From the NCBI GenBank assembly GCA_934636825.1, contig CAKUBG010000013.1:1234-65233 (forward strand): a stretch of DNA of 64,000 nucleotides, in the 5' to 3' direction. The position numbers and the translations under genes were made by a program. The notes beneath the pieces were generated by a model. That model was given only the letters and a program-made list of their open reading frames with translations. It searched no databases and was not told the origin of the DNA. The stretch's first letter is position 1. Each line of letters starts with the position of its first letter. Shown here piece by piece: positions 1 to 55,097 of the stretch. This stretch comes from an uncultured bacterium (lineage in GTDB: Bacteria > Vulcanimicrobiota > Xenobia > Xenobiales > Xenobiaceae).

Positions 1-107
1 TTTAGATTGCAGCATTTTTTTCAGTGTAAATACACTACAATACCTTTATATTTTCTTTATTTTTTATTCTTTTTGTTTCTCCTTAATCTTAGGTCTATTA
101 AAAAATA

Positions 108-1553
108 TCAAGGTTTGTTTTCAGGCAAATTGGAGGGGACGCTAGCAATTTCAAAGCAAGCTATCTGTCCTTGAGCTCCGCCAAGATAAAGATATTTATC
201 ATCAATAACGAGTGGACAAGATGGAACGAAGGGGAGATTATATTCCCGCTTTAAGTGACCAGATTCGGCATCCAAAACAAGAAGGCTTGAATTTTCTGTC
301 GCCGTCAAGATATTGCCGTTCCAGTATAAAGCCGGAGTTGATAGAGCTTGAGCACTTTGATAACGCCAAAGAAGCTGTCCGCTTAAAGAAGCTAAAGATA
401 TTATATTGCGATCATTGACAAAGAAGCAGCGAGGCTTTTGAAGATCGAAACTCAGTGTATTGATTAAAATGCCCTGAGAATTTGTTTGCTCACTGCCATG
501 TTGGGGCGGAGTGTAACGCCAGACAAATTTTGGTTTAAAGTATTGAGCGCCTTCAGAGTCGGCCCCTAAAGCGTAGCAAAAAATATGGCCATTGGAAGCG
601 GTGGCATAGAGAAAATTTTTGATTATACGTAGTGGTTGGCGAAATTCCAGAGAACCGGAACCTATTTGCTGATTTATCGAAGCACTTGGATTGTTTAAGT
701 CGACGCTCCATAATTGGCCATTTAAACTGATTGCATACAGATATTCTGAATTTCTATTATTGAAAGCTTGGATAGCCGGATCGCTGACAAACGCTTTGCT
801 GTTTATTCCGTTGCACGGCAAGAGATGCCAACTGGCATTTGTGCCGTCGGCGGCAAATTGAGTCACTATTCCATCTCCGGAAAGACAAACAATTTTCTCT
901 TCACTTCGGCAAGGAGAACTGTAAGACAGACGGGGCAAAGTACTAAATTTTAAATGTAACAATTTATTGCGAAATTGCCGTTCTTCTGCTTTTTCTCTGG
1001 CTTTAGCCATAGCTTGGGCAGCTGTCAGACGCTCTGAAGAATTTTTAGTCGATTCATAACGCTTTTTTTTGCTTTCTTGGATCAATTGATCGTATGGAAA
1101 AGGTAAAATCCAATATTTTGCTTCTCCGCTAATCAGATCCAGGCAACTTACCGAGCAATCTTTGGTGCTTGCTACCAACATGTTGTCCAGACACAACGGA
1201 GGAGAAACAATGGGGGCGCTGATAGATGTATTCCATATGGCAAGGCCGCTGACCGTATCGTAGGCAGCTATTTGTTTCGAAAACAGAGAGCCAACATTGA
1301 GCAAGCGATTGTTTACTGATAGCCAGGCGATCTGATTTTTAAAATTTGTTTCCCAAAGTGGCTGGGAATTAAGATAAAAGCGACCGTAAGGAACGTTTTG
1401 GCCCTGTTCTTCGGTAGCAGAAGCAGAAGGCGGCCCGGAGGGAAGCCTATTAGGTTCGGGAACATTTTCGGCACTGCTTGGCCAGGCTTGAAGACAACAG
1501 ACGGCCAGGACTGCAAGGGATGAGGCAATAGATGAAAAGTTAAGTCTGGACAT
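108..1553 (-). CDS. PQQ-like beta-propeller repeat protein with N-terminal signal peptide and a charged coiled-coil insert; BamB-like candidate
   Basis: 481-aa ORF. N-terminal hydrophobic signal (SSLAVLAVCCLQAWP). Repeated G-x-(V/I/L)-x-A-x-D...G-x-x-x-W beta-propeller blades. Lies divergent to bamA. Confidence 0.55.
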   Translation of the reverse strand: MSRLNFSSIASSLAVLAVCCLQAWPSSAENVPEPNRLPSGPPSASATEEQGQNVPYGRFYLNSQPLWETNFKNQIAWLSVNNRLLNVGSLFSKQIAAYDTVSGLAIWNTSISAPIVSPPLCLDNMLVASTKDCSVSCLDLISGEAKYWILPFPYDQLIQESKKKRYESTKNSSERLTAAQAMAKAREKAEERQFRNKLLHLKFSTLPRLSYSSPCRSEEKIVCLSGDGIVTQFAADGTNASWHLLPCNGINSKAFVSDPAIQAFNNRNSEYLYAISLNGQLWSVDLNNPSASINQQIGSGSLEFRQPLRIIKNFLYATASNGHIFCYALGADSEGAQYFKPKFVWRYTPPQHGSEQTNSQGILINTLSFDLQKPRCFFVNDRNIISLASLSGQLLWRYQSAQALSTPALYWNGNILTATENSSLLVLDAESGHLKREYNLPFVPSCPLVIDDKYLYLGGAQGQIACFEIASVPSNLPENKP

Positions 1554-43320: not shown

Positions 43321-43522
43321 TGAACAATTGACATTTAAGACTTTCGTCTCCGCTTCGAATAAGTTGTGACGAAAGTCGACTATCTGTCGATTCTATGTAA
43401 GATAGGCGTTTTGTTTTAGATGTTTTCTAGGCAAAGCGCCTATTTTTATATAGCTTCGGCTTGTACCGTCTCTTTTTTAGATAAACGTAAAATCTTTGAA
43501 ATTTGAGTGAAACAAACTGGAC

Positions 43523-44140
43523 GTGACTGGATTTAAACCACCAGACAAACCCGAGGAAGAAACTGCCGATGCTGCTTTGTTAGCTCGTTTTCAGGCTGGC
43601 GACGACTCTGCGTTTGATGAATTGATGACTATTTATTATCGTCCTGTACTGAATTTAATTTATAAATTCAAGGGCGGTTCAGCTAAGGAAGCTGAAGACA
43701 CTGCTCAGGAGGTTTTCCTTCAATTATATAAGGCTTTGCCCAGATTCGAACTCAGAGCTCGTCTCTTCACCTATATATATAAAGTGACTATGAATCAGTG
43801 CTTTAAGGAAAGAAAGAAGCGAGCTAAAGATGTTCCTCTTCAGATCAGTCTAGATGAACCTGTGGATAACGGCGGAGATCGTCCCATACAACGCGATTTT
43901 GCCGATCCCGGAGATTCTCCGTTAGAGTCTGTGGAATACGGGGAAGTCAGTCGTGAATTGCGTCGAGCACTTTTGAAAATTGACGAAGAAATGAGAGCTC
44001 CGCTGATAATGAACCGTTTTTACGATCTCACTTATGAAGAAATCGCAGAAACGTTGGGCATTACAGTCGCTGCGGTCAGATCTAGAATCCATCGGGCGCG
44101 TCAGACTTTACAAAAGTATTTGGGCAAGATATTTAGTTAG
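43523..44140 (+). CDS. ECF-subfamily RNA polymerase sigma factor
   Basis: Region 2 (FDELMTIYYRPVLNLIYK...AEDTAQEVFLQLYKAL) and a region 4 helix-turn-helix (LTYEEIAETLGITVAAVRSRIHRAR). GTG start at 43523 is uncertain. Confidence 0.7.
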   Translation: MTGFKPPDKPEEETADAALLARFQAGDDSAFDELMTIYYRPVLNLIYKFKGGSAKEAEDTAQEVFLQLYKALPRFELRARLFTYIYKVTMNQCFKERKKRAKDVPLQISLDEPVDNGGDRPIQRDFADPGDSPLESVEYGEVSRELRRALLKIDEEMRAPLIMNRFYDLTYEEIAETLGITVAAVRSRIHRARQTLQKYLGKIFS

Positions 44141-44157: not shown

Positions 44158-44850
44158 ATGAAAGGTAACGAAAGCTCAGAAGCTGCTTTTTCGGACAATA
44201 TAGAATGTCAAGAGTGTATAGATAAATTATTGGAATATGAAGACGGGCTTCTTAGTGAACCTGATACTTCAAAACTTAAAAAACATTTAGAAGAGTGCTC
44301 CAAATGCCAACAGTATCAACATTCTTTAGGTGAGGTGTGGAAAAACTTAGATAAGGCCTTTCCACAAGAACTTGAGCCTTCTCCGGATTTTAAAGTACGA
44401 TTTTGGAAGAAGGTTGGGCAAGAATCAGACAAAGATAAAATTATCGATTTAGAAGCCAGGTTAAAAGCTAAAAATAAGTATTTGCGTTACTGGAAAGTTT
44501 TTACAGCTGCTGCATCTTTAACTGTGGTTGGCGGTGCTGTGCTTTGGAGTGCTTTCGCTAATAACGTCGCTACGTCATCTAATTCTGTAAGCTTGATGGT
44601 TAGTACCAATACTGCTGCAGGGGTCAATTCCACATTACAAAGAGGTTCCGAACAATCGATTGAGTCTGGAACTGAGTTTAGCGGTGATGAACCGTACTAC
44701 ACAGATTATGTTTTGGCTGATGAATTTAACAATAATGCCAACGAAGATCTGAGCAATAGCGTTATTTATGCTGATTACGAGCCGGATTATATAATGTCTC
44801 AAGAGCTTTTGGACATGGCTTTCGATGAAGCTGCCGACAGTGCACACTAA
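44158..44850 (+). CDS. Zinc-finger (ZAS-type) anti-sigma factor, single-pass membrane protein
   Basis: RBS AAAGGAG. HxxxCxxC motif (HLEECSKCQ) plus an upstream CQEC. TM helix VFTAAASLTVVGGAVLW. Confidence 0.65.
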   Translation: MKGNESSEAAFSDNIECQECIDKLLEYEDGLLSEPDTSKLKKHLEECSKCQQYQHSLGEVWKNLDKAFPQELEPSPDFKVRFWKKVGQESDKDKIIDLEARLKAKNKYLRYWKVFTAAASLTVVGGAVLWSAFANNVATSSNSVSLMVSTNTAAGVNSTLQRGSEQSIESGTEFSGDEPYYTDYVLADEFNNNANEDLSNSVIYADYEPDYIMSQELLDMAFDEAADSAH

Positions 44851-44876: not shown

Positions 44877-45380
44877 GTGTTTAGGAAGATTGTGCTATTT
44901 ATTGCTATGGTGGGCACTTTGTCTCCTGCTTCCGGAGTGGCTTTGGCAGAAGAAGAAAGTGACTTTACCGAAAATGGAAGCGTACAAAAAACTGCTGTCA
45001 ATATTAGTGAGTGCAGTTTAGTTAAATGTCTGCCTGAAAACAATGCTACTGTTGTGGACAATTTGCCCAAGGGTAAATTTATAAGTCGCAAAGATAAGGA
45101 AGACAAGTTTCCCGAGGCCAAACAAGTAAGAGAAAAGTATCGTCCTCAAATGCTGCAACTCAGAGCGTCTATCAAAGAACTTCGAGGCAGAGTTGCCAGA
45201 GAGCTCACTTCTGATAACCCCAGCAAAGCGGTGGTGAAAAATTATCTCAATCAACTTGTTGAATTGCGTCGCAAACAGCAAATGCTTTTAGTAGATCAAA
45301 TGTTTGAAACTTTAGAACAGCTTCCTAAAGAAAAACGTGCTGATTATATCCAGCCTATTGTGGAGCATTGTTTGCGCTAA
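44877..45380 (+). CDS. Periplasmic helical protein, possibly Spy/CpxP (LTXXQ)-like
   Basis: GTG start after GAGAGG. Signal peptide present. Helical C-terminal half with LNQLVELRRKQQ-type motifs. Operon position directly after the sigma/anti-sigma pair. Confidence 0.4.
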   Translation: MFRKIVLFIAMVGTLSPASGVALAEEESDFTENGSVQKTAVNISECSLVKCLPENNATVVDNLPKGKFISRKDKEDKFPEAKQVREKYRPQMLQLRASIKELRGRVARELTSDNPSKAVVKNYLNQLVELRRKQQMLLVDQMFETLEQLPKEKRADYIQPIVEHCLR

Positions 45381-45404
45381 GTTGTAAAACTGAAAAATGC
45401 AATA

Positions 45405-45455
45405 AATAAGCTGCCGCCATCCTTAAATTGGAGGATAGCGGCAGCTTATTTGTTT
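45405..45455. terminator. Bidirectional terminator hairpin
   Basis: AAGCTGCCGCC-loop-GCGGCAGCTT followed by ATTTGTTT. Confidence 0.55.
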
Positions 45456-45529: not shown

Positions 45530-46282
45530 CTAAGCGCCGATAATGAAAGCGCTGTCGGCAATGCTAGGAGTGTCAATTATTGGCGAACTAGAAGCTTTCA
45601 GCACCGTATCGATGGTGTGAACGCTGGTAAGCACCAAATCAGGAGCTTTGACTACAGTTTTTGATTCGAGGTGGGAGCTGACCATTTGTCCAGCTCTATA
45701 AGCAAAAGCTGTTCTGGCTCTCACTTGTACAGATTGACTGATACCATCTTTTATATCAGCACTCATGGGGCCGGCAGACGTTTCGATAATGGCTACGTCG
45801 TAATTTTGCTCTGTATCCAAGCCGATCAGTTTATGCTCAAATTTTAAATCGAGAGTAATCGATTGACCTTTATCTCCTAAAGGAATTTCCAAAGGTTTAA
45901 TCTCTGTCCAAGAAGAGCCTACTTGTTGCAAACCGCTGGGAAATACGGGCTGGTTTATGTTGGCATTGACGGTAGAGCGAGTTATGCGCCCGGTCTTCTC
46001 TACAGTCATACCAATAGTCTGACCGACAGCAGGCAAGGGAAGCCTTTGATTATTGCGCTCAATGAAGCCATCGGTAACATTGACGTCTACATCGAAGGTA
46101 GTTCCGGAAACTTTAGTCACCTTCTGGTCGGTATACATCTCCATAACGACGTCAGTATTGCTGATCTCTTCGTTATTTTCTTCTGTTTTTTGTTTTGAGT
46201 GCATTATCGTTTGGTAAGAAAGCACTTCTCCGGTGGCGGCTTTATATTCTAAAAATACGCCTTCAGTATTGAGCATTTGCAA
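45530..46282 (-). CDS. Hypothetical protein (250 aa), predicted all-beta and soluble
   Basis: ORF with coding-like composition. No signal peptide. No recognisable motifs. Confidence 0.45.
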   Translation of the reverse strand: MQMLNTEGVFLEYKAATGEVLSYQTIMHSKQKTEENNEEISNTDVVMEMYTDQKVTKVSGTTFDVDVNVTDGFIERNNQRLPLPAVGQTIGMTVEKTGRITRSTVNANINQPVFPSGLQQVGSSWTEIKPLEIPLGDKGQSITLDLKFEHKLIGLDTEQNYDVAIIETSAGPMSADIKDGISQSVQVRARTAFAYRAGQMVSSHLESKTVVKAPDLVLTSVHTIDTVLKASSSPIIDTPSIADSAFIIGA

Positions 46283-46339: not shown

Positions 46340-48166
46340 CTAAAATCCTTTACCGGCATGTAAAATATCCCAGTTTAGTTTGTTGTAACTGCGGCAAAGC
46401 TCATCGATATTTTGTTTATCTTTAAGATATTGCAAGGAACTGTGACGTAAAGTCAAAGCATAGTCCTTGTCTCCTTGTTTTTGAGCAAATTCAGCCTCTT
46501 TTTGTAAAGGTTCTATGTCTTGACAAACCTTCTTTATTTCCTGAATCCTTTGGCCAGAAGTTGGATGAGTACTAAACCAAGGAATATGAAGTTTGGCTTG
46601 TCCGGATTCTTGCTGGTATAATTCGAGTTTTTCTAAGGTAGCGCAAAATTCTTGAGGATTGTAACCAGCGGCAAAAGAAAGTTGCACAGCGCTGCGATCA
46701 GCCTCATATTCTTGCTCACGCGAAAAGCCCTTATTTATTAAGTCTGTCGCTTTTTGCGAGCCTAAATATCCCCAATAGCTGCGGGTTGTATAGCGCATAA
46801 CTGTACCCAAAATATTGGATATATTGCCACGCATTTTGCTAGCATTGCCATGTTTGTGCAATATATGAGCAAACTCGTGGGCCAAAACAGCAGCCAGTTC
46901 GTCATCGCTTTCCAAGATCTTTAATAATCCAGAGGTAACAAAAACTGGCCCACCAGGGACGGAGAGAGCTTGCGCCTCTGGGGAATTAAGCACGACAAAG
47001 TCGCACAAATCTGGAGAGAAACCGTTGCCTTCTAAGAGCTGCCGACCGATTTTTTGGACTCGACTTATTGCTTCTTGATCTTGGCTTAAACTGTAACGAC
47101 TCTGAACTTGAGAAGCTCCCTCTTTAGAAAGTTCTCGGTCTTGTCTACTCATACTTAAATATGGATCGTCTTTGGGAAAGCAAACTGCGCATGGTTCGTA
47201 TCCCTTGCGTTTAGCAAGCTTCTCGTCTTTAAAGGCATAAAGACGACTATTTGTAGAAAGGTGATTCGCTCCGGGCTTATGGTATTGCTTGCTTTCCATA
47301 TTTACCACAACCCCATGAAGCTCGCCCCACTCTTGAAGCGCTTGATCGCATAAATTTTGCCACCCTTTGCCTTTGGCTAAAGGGGCTCGCACTTCGCGCT
47401 CGTCCAAAAGTTCCAGATCATACAAATGGCCTAACAAGTTTTTGCCTTCTTGGCGAACGACGAGAACTTTACGTGGTAAAATGACTCTAGAAGCGTAATC
47501 AGATTGCATAAAGAGAGCGAGATTCTTTACTAGAGCAGCTTTTTCGCTATCACTCAAATTGTTTGTGGCTTTGGCATTAAAAAGTACTTCCGGGTCGCAA
47601 ACTATTTGTTGGTTTTGCTCTAAAGGAAGGGGAGGCGAGGTTCTTTTTAGTAGGCCATGATTGTCGAAAGAGACTAGAGCTAATTCAGGGCGCTGGACAT
47701 CTAAATCTTCGTCTTCAGGAAAGGCATTAGAATTTGGGAAAATTTCTTCTTTATCTTCTGGAGAATCGATCTTGGCTGCCGGAATAGATTGCCAAGTTGG
47801 TGATTGGTTATCTGAGGGGCTACTTGTAACGACCGGACGATCATGATTTAGAGCAGGGAGAGTAACTGCACGATTTTGATTGGGTGAAGTCGGCGTAGTG
47901 TTGGGAGCGCTGGCTCCGGGAAGAGAGTATTCCGGTGATTTACCGTTTGGAGTTGATTTCGGAAGTAAAATCGGAGGCTCTTGAGTTAAAGAAGGCTCGT
48001 CCTCACTTATATCAAGGTCACCGGGCAGTTCAAAGTTCTGAGCCAGCCAGGGCTCCGAATGCTTAGGAGCAGGGGCTGGCAAGTTGGCTGAAGATATTGA
48101 GCAGCAAACGTTAAAAGAGACGACAAGGCCCATAAGGCCGCCTAATAGCTTAGAATTGTGATTCAA
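46340..48166 (-). CDS. M48-family zinc metalloprotease with a long Pro/Ser-rich N-terminal region and a Cys motif reminiscent of Ada-type metal binding
   Basis: Signal peptide present. HExxH zinc motif (AHEFAHILHKHG). Downstream Glu (EYEADR). Central Cys motif GYEPCAVCFP. Confidence 0.7.
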   Translation of the reverse strand: MNHNSKLLGGLMGLVVSFNVCCSISSANLPAPAPKHSEPWLAQNFELPGDLDISEDEPSLTQEPPILLPKSTPNGKSPEYSLPGASAPNTTPTSPNQNRAVTLPALNHDRPVVTSSPSDNQSPTWQSIPAAKIDSPEDKEEIFPNSNAFPEDEDLDVQRPELALVSFDNHGLLKRTSPPLPLEQNQQIVCDPEVLFNAKATNNLSDSEKAALVKNLALFMQSDYASRVILPRKVLVVRQEGKNLLGHLYDLELLDEREVRAPLAKGKGWQNLCDQALQEWGELHGVVVNMESKQYHKPGANHLSTNSRLYAFKDEKLAKRKGYEPCAVCFPKDDPYLSMSRQDRELSKEGASQVQSRYSLSQDQEAISRVQKIGRQLLEGNGFSPDLCDFVVLNSPEAQALSVPGGPVFVTSGLLKILESDDELAAVLAHEFAHILHKHGNASKMRGNISNILGTVMRYTTRSYWGYLGSQKATDLINKGFSREQEYEADRSAVQLSFAAGYNPQEFCATLEKLELYQQESGQAKLHIPWFSTHPTSGQRIQEIKKVCQDIEPLQKEAEFAQKQGDKDYALTLRHSSLQYLKDKQNIDELCRSYNKLNWDILHAGKGF

Positions 48167-48387
48167 GGCTTGTTCGGTTCCTTTGCGAAGAAGAGCACCG
48201 GCTGTGGTAGCGAGTAAAAACTATAGAACTTTTTTCATCGCCAAAAAAACAGTAAGTACCGGGAAAAATTGTACAATATTTGTGGGTGTGTTTCAAATTT
48301 TTTATTCGAAGCCGTTTTGTGAGAAATAAGGAACAGAGACGGTAAGTGTCGAAGTTGTAGAGGAATGTTTTCTTCAGGAATGATGCT

Positions 48388-49587
48388 ATGAGCGATATCG
48401 ATTATTTAGAGCGATTGCCTAAAATTAACAGTGCAGCTTCTACAGACAACAGCTTTGCCTTATCAGAAGACGAGCGCCAAACGCTCGATGAAGAATCTAA
48501 GACGAAATTGATCGAGTTGCTGAAGCGTGAGGAGTCTGGAACTACTTCTGAAATAGTCAGCCGTTTTAAGAGCGGAGACAAAGAAGCTGCCGAGATTCTG
48601 GTGCGTACTTTCTATCCCTATGTTGAAAGTCTCTTGGTGGCTTTGGAAAAACGCGATTTGCAAGAGAGAGCTAGTGAGCGGGGAGGCATAGCACCGGCTT
48701 TAATTAGCAGCGGTGGTCGTCGCAAAGAGTTTCTTAATAGCTTTTTTACTGATTTCGTCAATAAAGCTGCTGATATAGATTTAAGTAAAGGTATTCGTCT
48801 TTATCTTTACAGCCATTGTGCCGAGCCTTTTATTAAACGTCTTCAGGACACTTTGGAGCAGCCGAAGGATAATACCGAAAGTTTAAAAGACAGTAGCCGA
48901 GAACGCAGTCTTTTCTTAGATGACGAACCCGGGCACAAGGCTTTAGCCTCAACCAATTACAGAAGCCAGGACTATAGCAACCCAGCCAAAGACAGTCTTT
49001 TTTTTGAAGATATTCCCAAACCCAAGATGAGGATATCTGGTATACCGGCGACCAGAAGCTTAAGTGGCAAAGAAGATGTTGTAAACCGTGAACGCAATTC
49101 TGTTGCAAAAACAGGAGGCGTTAAGGGGCCTGTATATATGCGTCAAAGTGACAGCTTGGCAGGTGCTGCAAGTAGTGGAAGCATTGAAGTGCGGCGTGTC
49201 GGTACTTTGGGAAATGCTTCTAATCAAGCCCAATTGTTGCGCACTGATTCTGGCACTAAAACTGCTATTTCGTCGCGTATACCTAGGAATAATGTCCATT
49301 TAGCTCCGGCTTTGAGCCCTTCTGAGGATATTCCGGAAAAAGAACCGGTTTCTGCCGCTCCTACAGCTCCGGCCCAACTGTCGCGTAAAGCTCAGGCAAT
49401 AGCCGGTGGCTTAAAAAAATTGGCAGTCACCGATTTAGAAGCCTATCGGACTGTAGTTATGCGTTATTTTGCTAATTGCTCATTTGCTGAGTTGTGCCAG
49501 AAATTGGAAGTTACTTCCGCAGGAGAGATTGGCTTACGCCTTTTGCGAGGTTTATTGAGCCTGGGTGGCGAGCAACGCCCTAGTTAA
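48388..49587 (+). CDS. Divergent sigma-70/ECF-like protein with a ~200-aa Ser-rich insertion between region-2-like and region-4-like segments
   Basis: SRFKSGDKEAAEILVRTFYPYVESLL parallels ARFQAGDDSAFDELMTIYYRPVLNLI of the neighbouring ECF sigma. C-terminal helix-turn-helix-like segment FAELCQKLEVTSAGEIGLRLLRG. Confidence 0.5.
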   Translation: MSDIDYLERLPKINSAASTDNSFALSEDERQTLDEESKTKLIELLKREESGTTSEIVSRFKSGDKEAAEILVRTFYPYVESLLVALEKRDLQERASERGGIAPALISSGGRRKEFLNSFFTDFVNKAADIDLSKGIRLYLYSHCAEPFIKRLQDTLEQPKDNTESLKDSSRERSLFLDDEPGHKALASTNYRSQDYSNPAKDSLFFEDIPKPKMRISGIPATRSLSGKEDVVNRERNSVAKTGGVKGPVYMRQSDSLAGAASSGSIEVRRVGTLGNASNQAQLLRTDSGTKTAISSRIPRNNVHLAPALSPSEDIPEKEPVSAAPTAPAQLSRKAQAIAGGLKKLAVTDLEAYRTVVMRYFANCSFAELCQKLEVTSAGEIGLRLLRGLLSLGGEQRPS

Positions 49588-49720
49588 GAGTTCTCCGCTT
49601 TTTATTTTCTGTAAAAAAAGTGTATTTTTTAGACAGATTCGACGATAGCTGGATGGTAGAAATATTGTGAGACCAAAGAAAAATGGCGCAGAGATTTGCC
49701 AAAACGAATATATAAAGGCT

Positions 49721-51232
49721 ATGTTGGTACCTTACGCGGAGCGTTCCTTGGCTAAAGCGAATCGCGCTGAAGTAGAGGCTCATTTAGCTGAATGCCAGTT
49801 TTGCCGTGAAGAAGTTAGACGCTTACACGACCTTATGCGTCCTTTGAGCGAATTGGCTAAAAGCGGGTTTAAACCTGTTTATGATGCTCATCCAACTCAT
49901 GAGCAATTGTTCCGCTACTCTGTCGGTGATAGGAGACAGAGTAGAGAAGAACAGCGCAATATTCGTTTGCATATATTTATGTGCAGCGATTGTAGTAAAG
50001 AAATTCAGCTTATCAAACAAGTAGAGCACGACTTTGAGGGACTTTCCGCCGAAGACAGCAGCCGTTGGACTATGCCTCCGGTATTACGCAATCTCTTCGC
50101 TTCTCCCAGTCGCACTTCCGTTATAGTAGAAAACGCTTTAGAAGAGCGCATCCCCAACATAGAACGCGTGCGAGCTATAATGCAAAAAGTTAATTTGCAT
50201 TTGGTCGGTGTCGTGGCGGCTATTATTTTGTTGATGTTCATTTGTTTATCGTTTATTACTTGTGGCAGCGGAGATGATGAACAACAAGCTAAAGTCAGTC
50301 CTTCACCTTCAAGCTCAGTTGTAGCGGCACAGACTGCAGTTAAAGAGGAATGGGTTGTTTTGCCTTTGGGTGACTTCAGCCCTGTAGAGGCTTGCACGGT
50401 ACTAAGTTCTCAAGATATTGCCTATCGCAGCACTAGAGGACGCTTAGAAGTAAAAGAAATTGATTTGGAAAGGGCCCAAGCTGCAGTAAATAAATATCGG
50501 GAAGGGTACAACTTACCTGAAAGTGCTCTAGCTTTGGAGGATAGCTCCACTCAGGATAGCTATGCTGAGGAGCAACCTTCTATTTCTGAAGATAATTATG
50601 ACTCTGCATCTACAGAGACGTCTAGCGATCCTGTCGACTATAATTCTGCTGTCGGAGAAGAAGAAAAATCTGGGGCCAATTATGACACTACAGTGGCGGA
50701 TAACAGATCGGTGGAAGAACCAACTGTCTCTGTGGCTGTTGCTCCTAAGTCTGTACAAGCTACAGCATCTCATAGCAGCAAAACTTTCTCTCAGCCGCGT
50801 GTAGCCGTACCTGCACATCGTGCTGTTGTTCGTCCTGTTTATAGTGCTCAGCCTAAAGTTAAAGCTAAGGTTGCCTCTCGACCTACACGCGCTTACGATA
50901 CAGCAGCCTATCAGCCTGCACCGTCTCCTATTTCTAAAACTTCAAAAAAGGTCTCTCCTGGAGACGGCCCCACACCTATTTCTGCTTCCTATGTTGCAGG
51001 CAGCAACCACCCCGAATCTTCACCCCGTTCAGCTGTCGCCCCTTCGCCGGCTATTATTCGTCCCGGCTCTGATGTAACCGTTTCTTCTATGCGCCGTCAC
51101 ACTTCTAAAACTGAATATGCGGCCGAAAGTACTGTTGCTGCTGAAGAACATACTTCTAAAAATGAAAACATGGTGGGTGGCAACACCTATGACGATGCAG
51201 ACAGCGTTACAAATCGCGATACTATAGAGTAG
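49721..51232 (+). CDS. Anti-sigma-factor-like single-pass membrane protein with a long Ser/Pro/Ala-rich extracytoplasmic tail (alternative GTG start at 49667)
   Basis: ATG preceded by AAAGG. Two H/C-x3-C-x2-C motifs (HLAECQFC, FMCSDCSK). TM helix LVGVVAAIILLMFICLSFI. ~300-aa low-complexity periplasmic region. Confidence 0.55.
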   Translation: MLVPYAERSLAKANRAEVEAHLAECQFCREEVRRLHDLMRPLSELAKSGFKPVYDAHPTHEQLFRYSVGDRRQSREEQRNIRLHIFMCSDCSKEIQLIKQVEHDFEGLSAEDSSRWTMPPVLRNLFASPSRTSVIVENALEERIPNIERVRAIMQKVNLHLVGVVAAIILLMFICLSFITCGSGDDEQQAKVSPSPSSSVVAAQTAVKEEWVVLPLGDFSPVEACTVLSSQDIAYRSTRGRLEVKEIDLERAQAAVNKYREGYNLPESALALEDSSTQDSYAEEQPSISEDNYDSASTETSSDPVDYNSAVGEEEKSGANYDTTVADNRSVEEPTVSVAVAPKSVQATASHSSKTFSQPRVAVPAHRAVVRPVYSAQPKVKAKVASRPTRAYDTAAYQPAPSPISKTSKKVSPGDGPTPISASYVAGSNHPESSPRSAVAPSPAIIRPGSDVTVSSMRRHTSKTEYAAESTVAAEEHTSKNENMVGGNTYDDADSVTNRDTIE

Positions 51233-51235
51233 CGT

Positions 51236-52150
51236 ATGGGTATTCCTGTTCTGGAAGTTACCAATTTAGCCTATTGGGGGGACAATGTCGCTTTAAAGGT
51301 TCCTATGTCCTTCGTTTTGGAAGCTGGAGACATAGGAGTAGTTATCAGTCAAAATCTGAGCAGCTCGGCCAATTTGTTGCATGCTGTAGCTGGAATGCCA
51401 ACTTCACGCCGCAACAAGATAAGTATCGGCGCTCATGCAAACACTTCTACTGCTGCCAAGTATTTGTTTGGATTTGTTCCTGCAAAGTCGGAATTTTATG
51501 AAGAACTTACCGTTTGGGAACAACTGGCTATTGGCGCTGAATTATACAATGTAGACAAACACTATCGTCCTTATGCTATATATGAAGCTCTGGAAATTAC
51601 CCAAATAACTCAATATAAAGATGTACAACTTGTCCAAATTGCTGATCTAAATTTGCGCAAACGCATAAGTATAGCCGGAGCTTTGGTACACAGTCCGCGT
51701 TTAGTTATAATAGAAGATCTATTCAGAGGTAGTGACTTTCGCAATTGGCAAAAAATGACCGATATACTTGACCAAATTCGTAATACCGGTAAAGCCATTC
51801 TTTTGTCTGCTGAAAGTTTACTCAACCTAGAATCACTGTACAGTCAATTATTTGTTGTCGGTGAAAATGAAGTTTTTGTGCACGGCTTGTATCCTCAAAT
51901 AGCGCAAAAAATCGGACAATACAATTTAGTGCAATTACAAGTTTGGGATACAGGAATAGATAGTGCCATACATTGTTTAAATGAGTCAGTCGATGTATTC
52001 GACATATTGCAAAAGGACGACGATCCTGGAGTATTGCGTTTCTTTTTTAAGGGTGACGGTACAAAATTGCATAATCTTGTCTCAATTTTAAAAAATAACA
52101 ATATACCCATTGTATCTTGTTTGGCTGTAGACAATTTTTTTGGACGCTGA
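51236..52150 (+). CDS. ABC-ATPase-fold protein with degenerate catalytic motifs (pseudo-ATPase)
   Basis: The expected Walker A position reads SQNLSSSANLL, with no Lys. The Q-loop Gln is replaced (VPAKSE). The signature reads LNLRKR. Walker B reads VIIEDL. The H-loop His is absent. Starts 4 nt after the upstream stop. Confidence 0.6.
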   Translation: MGIPVLEVTNLAYWGDNVALKVPMSFVLEAGDIGVVISQNLSSSANLLHAVAGMPTSRRNKISIGAHANTSTAAKYLFGFVPAKSEFYEELTVWEQLAIGAELYNVDKHYRPYAIYEALEITQITQYKDVQLVQIADLNLRKRISIAGALVHSPRLVIIEDLFRGSDFRNWQKMTDILDQIRNTGKAILLSAESLLNLESLYSQLFVVGENEVFVHGLYPQIAQKIGQYNLVQLQVWDTGIDSAIHCLNESVDVFDILQKDDDPGVLRFFFKGDGTKLHNLVSILKNNNIPIVSCLAVDNFFGR

Positions 52151-52355
52151 AACACTTTTTTAGCGGAAGGAGAACAATTGGGGCTGTAGAACCGATCACG
52201 AAAGTTCATTTCACAACTGAACTGCTTAGGGCGGGCTGTCCTTCACGAAACGTAAGGAATTGTGTTCGGCAGTTTCGTTTTTGGGGCTGTCAAAAATGGT
52301 CCCGTCAACATTGAGATGGCCCTTGAGGGCCGAGAAAGCGAGTGGAGTAGGCTAA

Positions 52356-52889
52356 ATGCGTAAATTCACAGCCACACTCTTCCTGCTGGCCACTTTGTCG
52401 CTGGGCTGCCTAGCGGTAGGTGCTGCGCCGGCTATGGCGGATGAGAGCATGAAGACCGTGAACTTAGTAACTGAGTTCGGTCCTTACACTTATAGTATTT
52501 ATGAGTATCCTTCTTACAATACCAGTTTCTTCTTCTATGAGAATAGCTACGTCGAATTTGACGTAGTAAATGGTACTTCTTGGAGAATCGAAGCCCCTAA
52601 GGCTATGATTCACAAGGAGCCCGCTGTCCCCGGTGAGACTTTGCTGGGCACCGGCCGCACCTACAATTCCATCGAGAATTTTGACGTATACTTCTACGCT
52701 CCCGACGGCACTCTCTTAGCTACCCGCAAGAACGCTAGATTGAGCGACAATTATAGCTTCCCCCGTGAGCGTCAGCATGACAAGGTGCGTGTGCGCATCG
52801 AGTCTAGAGGCGTGCAGAACTTAGATGCTAAGTTCATCGTTTGGGATCCGGTCAACCCTGTGGTTGCCAAACCCATTGTAGAGAAGTAG
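52356..52889 (+). CDS. Small secreted protein (177 aa), unknown function
   Basis: Signal peptide with AxA site (AAPAMA-DE). RBS GGAGTAGG. Aromatic-rich predicted beta protein. Confidence 0.5.
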   Translation: MRKFTATLFLLATLSLGCLAVGAAPAMADESMKTVNLVTEFGPYTYSIYEYPSYNTSFFFYENSYVEFDVVNGTSWRIEAPKAMIHKEPAVPGETLLGTGRTYNSIENFDVYFYAPDGTLLATRKNARLSDNYSFPRERQHDKVRVRIESRGVQNLDAKFIVWDPVNPVVAKPIVEK

Positions 52890-52979
52890 TTTTTGCTCGT
52901 AGCGATGCGCTCTCATATCATTGTTTTCATGTAAATAGAGCAAAAGAGATATCGATTGGGCGCATTGAGCACTTCAAGT

Positions 52980-53020
52980 AGACATTTCCGGCAATATAGT
53001 CGGAAACGTCTATTTTTTTT
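52980..53020 (+). terminator. Rho-independent terminator candidate
   Basis: AGACATTTCCG-loop-CGGAAACGTCT followed by ATTTTTTTT. Confidence 0.5.
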
Positions 53021-53165
53021 GCCTTTTTAGGAAAACGAAAAAATATAAGCTAATCAAGATAAATTCTAACGTTAATAAAATAAAGAATGGCTATAATAAC
53101 AGGCGGTGGATTCTATCCTGGTTGTGGGGTGGGGATACTGAATTTTATTCTATGGAGTTTTAGTT

Positions 53166-55097
53166 ATGGCTGCGCAAACATATGAATTTCAGGCTCAGGC
53201 TCGCCAACTCTTAAATTTAGTTATCAATTCTATTTATTCTAATAAAGAAATATTTTTACGTGAGTTGCTCTCCAATGCCTCTGACGCTTTAGATAAATTA
53301 CGTTTAGAAGCTTTGAAAAATTCCGAGTTGGAAGCTGACCTTTCCCATTTGCATATCACCATTGAACGCGATACCGAAAAGCGCACTTTGAAAGTGATAG
53401 ATAATGGTATCGGTATGAATGCCGAAGATCTTAAAGGTTTGATTGGTACAATCGCTCGCTCTGGAACTGCTGAGTTTTTGCAAAAAGCTACCGAAAACAA
53501 ATCAGAAGCTGCTGAATTGATTGGTCAGTTTGGTGTTGGCTTCTATTCTGTGTTTATGGTTGCCAAGAAAGCCGTTATCGAAACTCGCAAGCTCGGAGAT
53601 AAGGAAGGTTATCGTTGGGAATCTGCTGGAGACGGCTCTTATACTATTGAAGAAGCTGGGCCGCTCCCTCAAGGTACCGCTATTACTTTATATTTGAAAG
53701 ATGCCGATGAAGAAAACGAGTTAGCCGATTATACTCAAGAATGGGTTATACGCGATTTAGTAAAGCGTTATTCAGATTTTATCTCTTATCCCATTGAGAT
53801 GATGGTTACTAAACGGGAGACAATTCCTGCCGATAAAGAAGGCGGGGAGCCTAAGACTGTTGAGAAGCAAGAGTTAGAGACTCTCAATTCTATGAAAGCT
53901 CTTTGGGCTCGTCCTGAAAGCGAAGTCGAGCCTAAGGAATATAATGACTTCTACCGTCGCATAGCTCACGATTGGCAAGATCCTTTAAAAGTTATTACCA
54001 TGAAGGGCGAAGGTACGTTCGAATTCCAAGCCTTGCTTTTCATTCCGGCTAAAGCTCCCTTCGATTTATATATGCCTGAAAGCAAGAGAGGCATACAGCT
54101 CTATGTAAAGCGCGTCTTTATCATGGATGATTGCGAAGAACTCTTGCCTCCTTATCTTCGCTTCTTGCGCGGTGTAGTCGATTCCAGCGATCTTTCTCTC
54201 AATGTTTCCAGAGAGATTTTACAAAAAGATCGTCAGATTAAGGCTATTAACAAGAGTATTGTCCGCAAGGTTTTGAGCGTACTCAAAAATATGTTGGAAG
54301 AAAAACCTGAAGAATATCGCAAATTCTGGCAAGAATTTGGTAAAGTGCTTAAAGAAGGGCTTTATAATGATGCTTCCAACCGTGAGAGAATTTTGGATGT
54401 CATGTTGGCAGATTCTACTCATTCTGCCGAGTTGACTACTCTCAAAGATTATGTCTCTCGTATGAAAGAGGGACAAGAGAACATCTATTATATTACCGGA
54501 GAAAATCGCGAGCGCTTAGCTAAAGCTCCGCAAATGGAGGTTTTTAAAGCTAAAGGTATTGAAGTGCTCATTTTGAGTGATCCTATCGACTCTGTTTGGG
54601 TAGAGATGGTTAGCGAATACCAAGGCAAGAAGTTCAAATCTGTATTGCGTGGTGCTCTTGAATTGGGTGATGAAGCTGAAAAGAAGGCTGCTGAAGAAAA
54701 ATTGGAAACGCAGCGCAAAGACTTGGCTTCTATGACCGCTTGGATGGGTAGCGATTTGGAGAGTAAAGTAAAAGAAGTTCGCGTCTCTAACCGACTCACC
54801 GATTCGCCAGCTTGTTTGGTCTCCGATGAAAACGACCCTACACCTTCCATGGAAAAGATTATGAAAGCTATGGGACAAAATTTCCCTGCAGTAAAGCGTG
54901 TTTTGGAGATTAACCCTGAGCATGCCATAATCAAGCGTTTGCATGAACTTTACAGTCAAGATGGAGATAGTGAAGATCTTAAGTCTGTTGTAGATTTGAT
55001 TTACGATCAGGCTGTCTTGGCTGAAGGTGGCGAACTTGCCGATCCGGCCGGTTTCTCTGCTGCTTTAAGTAAAGTAATTAGCAAAGCTTTGCACTAG
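53166..55097 (+). CDS. htpG: Molecular chaperone HtpG (Hsp90)
   Basis: GHKL ATPase N-terminus (YEFQAQARQLLNLVINSIYSNKEIFLRELLSNASDALDKLR). Family-typical middle and C-terminal domains. 643 aa. Confidence 0.9.
   Translation: MAAQTYEFQAQARQLLNLVINSIYSNKEIFLRELLSNASDALDKLRLEALKNSELEADLSHLHITIERDTEKRTLKVIDNGIGMNAEDLKGLIGTIARSGTAEFLQKATENKSEAAELIGQFGVGFYSVFMVAKKAVIETRKLGDKEGYRWESAGDGSYTIEEAGPLPQGTAITLYLKDADEENELADYTQEWVIRDLVKRYSDFISYPIEMMVTKRETIPADKEGGEPKTVEKQELETLNSMKALWARPESEVEPKEYNDFYRRIAHDWQDPLKVITMKGEGTFEFQALLFIPAKAPFDLYMPESKRGIQLYVKRVFIMDDCEELLPPYLRFLRGVVDSSDLSLNVSREILQKDRQIKAINKSIVRKVLSVLKNMLEEKPEEYRKFWQEFGKVLKEGLYNDASNRERILDVMLADSTHSAELTTLKDYVSRMKEGQENIYYITGENRERLAKAPQMEVFKAKGIEVLILSDPIDSVWVEMVSEYQGKKFKSVLRGALELGDEAEKKAAEEKLETQRKDLASMTAWMGSDLESKVKEVRVSNRLTDSPACLVSDENDPTPSMEKIMKAMGQNFPAVKRVLEINPEHAIIKRLHELYSQDGDSEDLKSVVDLIYDQAVLAEGGELADPAGFSAALSKVISKALH

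Follow-up and report, generated by a model that had tools for sequence, protein, structure and literature searches.

A conserved gene cluster of uncultured Xenobia encoding a divergent ECF-type sigma homologue, a predicted tandem-module anti-sigma protein and a degenerate ABC domain

Does a run of three adjacent genes in an uncultured bacterium of the class Xenobia encode a sigma/anti-sigma switch of an undescribed kind, or only proteins that happen to resemble the parts of one? The question is raised by a 64,000 nt stretch of DNA (assembly GCA_934636825.1, contig CAKUBG010000013.1, positions 1,234 to 65,233; hereafter 'the window'), in which an original prediction had described a sigma-like protein, an anti-sigma-like membrane protein and a protein with an ATP-binding cassette (ABC) fold as a non-canonical sigma module. 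The coordinates and described features of all three open reading frames, here termed A, B and C, could be reproduced (Table 1). The cluster looks like a variation on the extracytoplasmic function (ECF) sigma/anti-sigma stress switch; such pairs have been described as the third major mode of signal transduction in bacteria, and are classified by means of profile models (PMC7826278). On balance we favour the reading that A, B and C, together with a fourth gene, D, form a lineage-specific envelope-signalling module of the ECF sigma/anti-sigma type, with a non-catalytic ABC domain as the third subunit.

The protein encoded by A is, on the evidence of profile comparison and structure prediction, a very divergent homologue of ECF-type sigma factors, composed of sigma2 and sigma4 without a region 3. 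This assignment relies on the combination of matches made by the wider family, a colinear profile alignment that can be set against null controls and the structural neighbours of the predicted fold. A family profile was built from an alignment of 18 members (alignment A4) from which the linker between the two domains had been removed, and was compared using hhalign with a profile of six sequences: three Xenobia ECF sigma factors plus AlgU, SigW and RpoE. The two matched with a probability of 92.6% and an E-value of 4.7e-7 over 149 colinear columns that span both sigma2 and sigma4, and the single ECF sigma factor encoded nearby in the window was matched with a probability of 90.4%, whereas two unrelated profiles from the same locus gave only 0.3% and 0.1% (E-values of 0.19-0.59). 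Within alignment A4, eight of the 18 members are matched by the Pfam model Sigma70_ECF (best E-value 3.4e-7) and three by Sigma70_r4_2. The window protein itself has weak NCBIfam matches to the SigI model at its N terminus and to a planctomycete ECF model (TIGR02984) at its C terminus. Neither region 3 nor region 1.1 was detected in A by the Pfam and NCBIfam scans or in the AlphaFold2 (AF2) model.

In that AF2 model, residues 31-157 are helical, with a predicted local distance difference test (pLDDT) score of 76-89 except within an inserted loop, and residues 330-395 form a small helical domain with a pLDDT of 58-74. When the N-terminal domain was used to search the Protein Data Bank (PDB) with Foldseek, the top ten neighbours were all sigma region 2 structures, or whole sigma factors aligned over that region, nine being of the ECF type and one RpoS. 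The first four were the sigma2 domain of E. coli sigmaE, and SigC, SigW, AlgU and CnrH were also among the neighbours; template modelling scores normalised to the target were 0.6-0.7 for the sigma2 domains of sigmaE, SigC and SigW, with probabilities of 0.72-0.98. The region 2.1-like block and C-terminal helix-turn-helix originally picked out by eye hence correspond to the two conserved parts of the family, and the suspicion that profile searches might find A unrelated to sigma-70 regions 2 and 4 was not borne out when the hhalign match was set against its controls. Regions 2.2 to 2.4, which had been called poorly recognisable, are indeed hard to see in the sequence, but are aligned by profile-profile comparison. 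An extra N-terminal helix of A (DEESKTKLIELLKREES; residues 34-50, positions 48487-48540) resembles a HEAT or alpha-repeat unit and retrieves designed alphaRep proteins from the PDB, a resemblance that is probably a short-motif artefact; L45, K46 and E48 are conserved throughout the family.

A departs from canonical ECF sigma factors in region 2.2, in the sigma4 recognition helix and in the linker. In the hhalign alignment, a 17 aa insertion falls within the segment that corresponds to the acidic 'DAED' motif of sigma2.2 (ERA[SERGGIAPALISSGGRR]KE); residues A102, P103, L105 and R112 of this segment are invariant in the subgroup of the family that includes the window protein (subgroup 1), whilst the members of a second subgroup have no insertion and keep an acidic E-x-x-E at sigma2.2. 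In canonical ECF sigma factors, the DAED-type motif contacts the clamp helices of the beta-prime subunit (PMC8999054).

The two domains of A are separated by a disordered linker with a pLDDT below 50. The original prediction of around 200 Ser-rich residues here was correct as to the existence of a spacer, which in fact has 171 residues and is only modestly enriched in serine (14%, compared to 9.6% in the remainder of the protein). Linker lengths across the A family range from 23 aa to 319 aa, that of the neighbouring canonical ECF sigma factor being around 45 aa in the hhalign alignment, and the members with linkers of 23-51 aa have ordinary ECF proportions. As the family member with the shortest linker, P0038 (23 aa), is found in the same gene context as A in the window, the long spacer is not a defining insertion, and the idea that it constitutes a conserved regulatory insertion has to be given up. 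The linker is only 12-20% identical to those of genus-level relatives, against 46-69% for the two domains. Three short motifs are nonetheless kept while the rest evolves quickly, namely SLFLDDEP, LFFEDxPKPKxxISGIPAxRS (in which G218 and P220 are invariant) and HLAPALSPSE, which suggests that they may be docking sites for a partner.

Directly downstream, B encodes what its sequence identifies as a single-pass membrane anti-sigma factor of the zinc-binding anti-sigma (ZAS) type with two complete sets of zinc ligands, both zinc and sigma binding being predicted. The Pfam model zf-HC2 (PF13490) matches B over two stretches with a score of 32.2 bits, relative to a cut-off of 22.2, and NCBIfam anti-sigma models match both modules with E-values of 3e-8. 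The putative ligands are C11, H39, C43 and C46 in the first module and H75 or H78, H102, C106 and C109 in the second; both sets are invariant in all homologues, down to 24% identity, wherever the residue is present. The second module is followed by a conserved W134-x-x-PP-x-LRNLF segment and by a conserved amphipathic juxtamembrane helix (residues 164-176), around which R167, Q173, K174, N176 and L177 are invariant, and then by a single hydrophobic transmembrane helix at approximately residues 177-200. Outside the membrane there is a small alpha/beta domain (residues 227-282; AF2 pLDDT 74-89) and a disordered tail, rich in serine, proline and alanine, that carries short conserved motifs and ends in the conserved sequence GGNTYxDxDSVTNRxTIE. 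Hence the two zinc-finger motifs originally noted in B are each backed by a full ligand set, and the transmembrane helix and S/P/A-rich tail are likewise present, with the length of the tail revised from around 300 aa to around 240 aa. The Pfam scan found no RsgI_N domain in B, and the highest ranking Foldseek neighbour of the B model is the anti-sigma factor ChrR, at a level that is not significant.

A homologue search with B retrieved four close relatives (P0045-P0048). The database gene calls for these proteins, which are 502-503 aa long, begin at the equivalent of Met19 and thereby lose Cys11, the first zinc ligand. Because residues 11-18 are conserved in all the loci, the longer GTG-started reading frame at 49667 is favoured, and is probably the correct one.

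The third gene, C, encodes a protein recognisable in sequence as an ABC nucleotide-binding domain with decayed catalytic motifs, in which the loss of catalysis is predicted. It matches the NCBIfam model TIGR01188 with an E-value of 5e-17 and, in the PDB, the second nucleotide-binding domain of ABCA3 (6.6e-12) and LptB (1.8e-9), yet scores 13.6 bits against a cut-off of 25 with the Pfam model ABC_tran. We aligned 11 subgroup 1 sequences, consisting of the window protein, nine of 13 database relatives and one locus copy, with two working ATPases. The Walker A motif GPNGAGKT of the working enzymes is replaced by SQNLSSSA, the signature LSxGxxQ by DLNLRKR, the Walker B motif LLDEP by IIEDL (within VIIED) and the H-loop SSH by SAE (within SAES), and these changes are identical in all 11 sequences; the original description of an ABC-ATPase fold degenerate at every catalytic motif was therefore accurate. 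In subgroup 2 the pattern is mixed: the copy in locus L007 (5584-6531) retains both a Walker A motif (GCEQDGKS, fitting GxxxxGKS) and a Walker B motif (LIDE) but neither the signature nor the H-loop, whereas that in L008 (2960-3895) retains the H-loop histidine but has lost the Walker A lysine and the catalytic glutamate. This mosaic looks like the stepwise loss of catalysis within a single family. At the genus level, C is 64% identical, compared to 51% for B and 45% for A, and this greater conservation implies that selection maintains C for a role other than a catalytic one. A permease gene is absent from every conserved A-B-C locus examined.

If these proteins act together, their genes might be expected to travel together, and the genes of related genomes are arranged accordingly. 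There were 15 cluster-level relatives of A among 5.8 billion proteins, and when 1.84 billion representatives were searched exhaustively with a profile there were 17 matches with E-values of 0.001 or below; one profile match, P0043, was rejected as a relative, being a coiled-coil repeat protein. The only source name attached to any member of the family is 'hypothetical protein', in Candidatus Bruticola (Vulcanimicrobiota, class Xenobia), and the other named relatives are UBP9_UBA4705 and metagenome-assembled genomes from the human gut, the Hadza gut and the rumen. All of the named relatives belong to the Xenobia (Vulcanimicrobiota/Eremiobacterota); A-B-C is restricted to this one uncultured, gut-associated lineage. 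The closest genome, L009 (CAAGRW010000096.1), which is 93% identical over A, is labelled 'Candidatus Riflebacteria bacterium', probably in error, given that every other relative with a name is assigned to Xenobia, UBP9 or Eremiobacterota. The family divides into subgroup 1, with the motif LVRTFYPY, and subgroup 2 (P0035-P0044), with the motif ELVCQAYYPFVEAL, which are around 20-25% identical.

In every locus with enough flanking sequence, including ten GTDB species genomes and the subgroup 2 loci, A, B and C are syntenic, and the order M48 / A-B-C-D is kept, the M48 metalloprotease gene being divergent from A. The arrangement in the main subgroup is a canonical ECF, anti-sigma and Spy-like trio, converging on an operon of a 250 aa protein and the M48 protease, which diverges from A-B-C-D, with HtpG beyond; subgroup 2 loci retain M48 / A-B-C-D with HtpG adjacent, and the outer flanks vary between loci. 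Hence the co-conservation on which the original prediction depended is found, but the proposed three-gene module is smaller than the conserved unit, which extends to D with its leader, to the M48 operon and, in the main subgroup, to the canonical trio. Spacing within the cluster is tight: the stop codon of B and the start of C are 3 nt apart, both genes sharing one reading frame, and the gap between A and B is 2 nt in one related locus (L019).

Upstream of A lies a motif resembling an ECF-type promoter, in which both blocks of GGAAC-N13-GTCGAA are conserved around a freely varying 13 nt spacer in the window locus (L001) and in L009-L015, representing two genera; this pattern is the predicted footprint of an ECF-type promoter. 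The motif occurs once in the 64 kb window and, in related loci, only upstream of A. A metagenome-wide scan produced at least 120 matches, and among the matches listed, a tblastn and blastn check found no cluster protein alongside the motif except for one weak ECF sigma hit. From the scans of the window, related loci and metagenomes, a regulon was not definable.

Table 1. Features of the A-B-C-D locus and its neighbourhood, in positions of the window unless residues are specified.
Feature	Position	Strand	Description
Canonical ECF sigma factor	43523..44140	+	TIGR02937 E-value 1.8e-29
Canonical ZAS anti-sigma factor	44158..44850	+	zf-HC2 E-value 3.1e-7
Spy/CpxP-like Metal_resist protein	44877..45380	+	Metal_resist E-value 1.2e-6, 29.1 bits (cut-off 29.2 bits)
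Bidirectional terminator	45404-45451	both	strong, 20 bp perfect stem; between Spy-like gene and convergent 250 aa gene
Conserved 250 aa protein	45530..46282	-	operon with M48 gene, divergent from A
Exported M48 metalloprotease	46340..48166	-	Peptidase_M48 E-value 2.2e-27; BepA/LoiP-like models below cut-off
Sigma70-like promoter of M48 operon	48296..48268	-	TTGAAA-17-TACAAT; conserved across the window's genus; predicted
ECF-type promoter-like motif	48326..48353	+	ATAAGGAAC-N13-GTCGAA; ends 35 nt before ATG of A, GGAAC 58 nt before ATG
Gene A	48388..49587	+	399 aa; divergent ECF-type sigma homologue: sigma2-like domain, disordered linker, sigma4-like domain
Sigma2-like domain of A	48487..48858	+	residues 34-157; AF2, Foldseek, hhalign
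Disordered linker of A	48859..49371	+	residues 158-328
Sigma4-like helix-turn-helix domain of A	49372..49572	+	residues 329-395; sub-threshold Pfam Sigma70_ECF and TIGR02984, hhalign to ECF region 4
Gene B	49667..51232	+	521 aa; predicted single-pass membrane anti-sigma protein with tandem ZAS modules
ZAS modules of B	residues ~8-65 and 72-125		tandem, in cytoplasmic part
Gene C	51236..52150	+	304 aa; predicted non-catalytic ABC2/ABCA-type nucleotide-binding domain and C-terminal domain
C-D intergenic region, leader of D	52151..52355	+	highly conserved non-coding block
Gene D	52356..52889	+	secreted 177 aa protein, downstream of C

On the reading we favour, the two ZAS modules of B would, in the resting state, keep A at the membrane by binding its sigma2 and sigma4 domains, plausibly with one module for each domain. 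C, no longer a motor, would serve as a structural third subunit. It may dock on the invariant amphipathic juxtamembrane helix of B, in the way that ABC2-type domains engage the connecting helix of their permeases; it may also bring two B chains together by means of its C-terminal domain, or interact with the motifs in the linker of A. An envelope signal would be read outside the membrane by the folded domain and disordered tail of B, possibly with the involvement of D, whereupon B would either be cleaved, the M48 protease being a candidate for the first protease to act, or undergo a zinc or thiol change. Once freed, A would bind core RNA polymerase and transcribe its own operon together with other targets. 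We are a good deal less confident of the particular proposal that the post-catalytic ABC domain is an obligatory third subunit, which controls sigma release by docking on the B helix or the A linker; this is offered tentatively, as something that may well not hold. Were it true, the combination of a sigma factor with a disordered linker of up to around 300 residues, a tandem anti-sigma factor and a pseudo-ATPase would be a new architecture, and C a rare example of a bacterial pseudoenzyme derived from an ABC transporter.

A number of observations weigh against this reading. The window copy of A scores 15.6 bits with Pfam Sigma70_ECF, below the cut-off of 21.1, is not matched by TIGR02937 and reaches only around 17 bits with NCBIfam models whose cut-offs are 184-287 bits; nor does it pass the curated cut-offs of Pfam PF07638, PF04542 or PF08281. 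An hmmsearch of PDB sequences with the full-length family profile gave no match, and hence no sigma factor, and with the linker deleted it recovered designed alpha-repeat proteins only. The Foldseek E-values for A, at 0.2-0.8, are not significant alone. Its sigma2.2 motif is interrupted by the 17 aa insertion and then continues as RRKE, and its sigma4 recognition helix retains only two of four basic residues. The AF2 model of B, a 290 residue model made from a shallow alignment, has a mean pLDDT of 47.2, most of the cytoplasmic part falling below 50. The promoter-like motif cannot be made out in front of A in the more distant loci, and where it is present it could be read by another sigma factor. 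The binding of A to B, to C and to RNA polymerase is a proposal. The evidence nevertheless leans towards A being a working ECF-like sigma factor.

The most serious competing explanation draws on the same divergence. A may be a sigma mimic or decoy that binds neither RNA polymerase nor DNA, and instead titrates B or the canonical anti-sigma factor, so tuning the canonical ECF sigma factor encoded 4 kb upstream; we judge this unlikely. The disrupted acidic motif, the loss of two basic residues from the recognition helix and the failure of any curated sigma model to accept the window protein would all suit such a role, as would the canonical ECF/anti-sigma pair that always adjoins the cluster in the main subgroup and the two anti-sigma modules of B, which could hold two different sigma-like partners. 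However, the Pfam and NCBIfam scans find in A neither a receiver nor any other switchable domain, and A has a dedicated anti-sigma gene directly downstream, as working ECF sigma factors do, and an ECF-type promoter-like motif upstream of itself. Residues D131, G135 and Y139, in the loop and helix of regions 2.3-2.4, are invariant or nearly so, as are the two remaining arginines of the recognition helix (R384 invariant, R387 nearly), and subgroup 2 retains its acidic E-x-x-E at sigma2.2. A more radical doubt is that the likeness to sigma factors is mere chance in a helical, low-complexity protein, and that A is an unrelated regulator or scaffold. The sub-threshold scores of the window protein in curated models and the alpha-repeat artefacts returned by hmmsearch from the PDB would fit, but this is very improbable given the colinear match over two domains, with its E-value of 4.7e-7 against 0.19-0.59 for the controls, the independent family members that reach Pfam-level E-values, the separate retrieval of ECF sigma2 domains as the best neighbours of the predicted fold and the ZAS anti-sigma gene adjoining A.

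It is also conceivable that C has nothing to do with sigma signalling, and derives from an ABC2-type transporter, as a remnant or accessory subunit, with the permease gene located elsewhere; it would then be a mere operon companion of the sigma/anti-sigma pair. ABC transporters are common beside ECF sigma genes, as in groups ECF258, ECF234 and ECF257, and the sigY operon of Bacillus subtilis reportedly carries the ABC genes yxlF and yxlG; moreover, the C copy of L007 keeps intact Walker A and Walker B motifs. We nevertheless hold this to be distinctly improbable, because no conserved locus has a permease gene, C is well conserved in the main subgroup despite the loss of all four catalytic motifs, and the 3 nt junction between B and C, together with their strict co-occurrence over a deep divergence, suggests that C is a stoichiometric partner of B.

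The nearest known relatives of such a module are the ECF/ZAS (class I) pairs, such as sigmaR-RsrA, sigmaE-ChrR and sigmaW-RsiW, which likewise have a sigma factor with sigma2 and sigma4 but without region 3, a single-pass membrane anti-sigma factor downstream with an H-x3-C-x2-C motif and a GGAAC promoter-like motif upstream. The cluster differs from them in that A is too divergent for curated models and has the 17 aa insertion in sigma2.2 and a disordered linker of up to 319 aa in the family, B has two complete tandem ZAS modules, and C and the secreted protein D are fixed in the operon. An anti-sigma factor with tandem ZAS modules is not described in the ECF and anti-sigma classification literature searched, and published descriptions of the ABC-linked groups ECF234, ECF257 and ECF258 include neither such an anti-sigma factor nor a degenerate ATPase without a permease. 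A literature text search for the combination found nothing comparable, in keeping with the original view that this sigma/anti-sigma architecture had not been described.

Other systems share individual traits with the cluster. The canonical DAED motif is also missing from the ECF43 sigma factors, exemplified by EcfP of Vibrio parahaemolyticus and EcfK of Xanthomonas citri; their activation comes about through Ser/Thr phosphorylation, on which they depend because the motif is absent (PMC8999054). A has Ser/Thr residues at the equivalent site (APALISSGG), and control by phosphorylation was considered on account of the lost motif; but no Ser/Thr kinase gene is found in or near the A cluster, and there is a dedicated anti-sigma factor here, whereas ECF43 has none. 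With no kinase gene nearby the idea was dropped as unsupported, and phosphorylation of A would be pure speculation. The PhyR-NepR-EcfG system offers a precedent for a sigma-derived protein with degenerate determinants for RNA polymerase and DNA, as A has near a canonical ECF/anti-sigma pair. Unlike PhyR, A has no receiver domain, and it has an anti-sigma factor and promoter-like motif of its own; B is a membrane ZAS protein rather than a small soluble protein like NepR.

The SigI-RsgI systems of Firmicutes comprise a membrane anti-sigma factor with a long disordered region in its outer part, to which envelope sensing has been ascribed, and B may be likened to this. The N terminus of A also weakly matches the SigI model (E-value 0.0036), but with a score of 16.7 bits against a cut-off of 287, and the C-terminal domain of A is sigma4-like, whilst B has zf-HC2 and no RsgI_N was found in it. 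As for C, MalK sequesters the regulator MalT, and heterodimeric exporters have degenerate ABC sites. C similarly combines an ABC fold with a C-terminal domain of the regulatory type, and would, on the present proposal, keep a transcription regulator at the membrane. MalK, however, is the working ATPase of a real transporter, whereas in C the Walker A, signature, Walker B and H-loop motifs have all been lost, and the C locus has no permease, the only membrane neighbour being the single-pass protein B.

Gene D follows C in every locus and encodes a protein with a signal peptide, as read from its sequence, but with no Pfam or NCBIfam match. It is 87-98% identical in the closer genera of the main subgroup and 42-51% identical in the distant subgroup. 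The conservation of its leader exceeds that of any protein in the cluster: a block of around 50 nt (GGCCCTTGAGGGCCGAGAAAGCGAGTGGAGTAGGCTAAATG) hardly varies in any of the loci, those of the distant subgroup included, and the synonymous sites of the first 20 or so codons of D, which encode the signal peptide, are almost frozen, such that the region of interest extends over 52151-52440, to about codon 28. In the structure predicted by RNAalifold, the Shine-Dalgarno sequence (GGAGU AGGCU) is paired with codons 5-9 in one hairpin and two further hairpins lie upstream, with few covarying pairs, and a search of 48000-53300 against Rfam returned no match other than one spurious long non-coding RNA hit. 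The leader is a candidate translational control element or new cis-regulatory RNA, with a putative hairpin that sequesters the Shine-Dalgarno sequence. The sequence CGAAAC-N20-GTTTCG followed by TTTTT, which stands just 3' of C (52232-52290) and is kept across the main subgroup, may act as a terminator or attenuator separating D from C.

The M48 protease has a signal sequence, then an N-terminal Ser/Pro-rich region of around 150 aa and a Cys-containing segment (…YHKPGANH…YEPCAVCFP), both preceding the M48 domain; like B, it thus has a long exported stretch of low complexity. The predicted promoter of the M48 operon and the ECF-type motif preceding A lie back to back. A search for a similar ECF-type motif in front of the canonical ECF sigma gene found none; directly before the GTG start of that gene is a conserved block, GAGTGAAACAAACTGGAC (43490-43530; L002, L010-L018), with no obvious Shine-Dalgarno sequence; this may be an unusual translation-initiation region or reflect a mis-called start. 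An HtpG gene lies downstream of D in the window, and the outer flanks consist of ordinary chromosomal genes, including those for pyruvate:ferredoxin oxidoreductase, oligopeptidase F and a major facilitator superfamily transporter. Neither a kinase gene nor an ABC permease gene was found among the neighbours of the cluster in the window, and the PADLOC models gave no matches with an E-value of 0.01 or below for A, B, C, D, the M48 protease or the 250 aa protein.

That the A family falls below curated Pfam and NCBIfam cut-offs, and has been given no name except 'hypothetical protein', points to a gap in what current annotation can recognise. Should A indeed work as a sigma factor, then sigma2 and sigma4 can function across a disordered tether of anything from 23 to more than 300 residues, the contact motif of sigma2.2 can be rebuilt around an insertion and a switch can include a decayed ABC ATPase as a permanent part. 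The tandem ZAS modules of B further raise the question of whether each zinc module holds one sigma domain. The bacteria that carry the cluster are uncultured and belong to the gut communities of humans, primates and ruminants and, given the position of the module beside genes for envelope quality control (the M48 protease, the Spy-like protein and HtpG), it is a candidate for a core stress circuit of this poorly known phylum.

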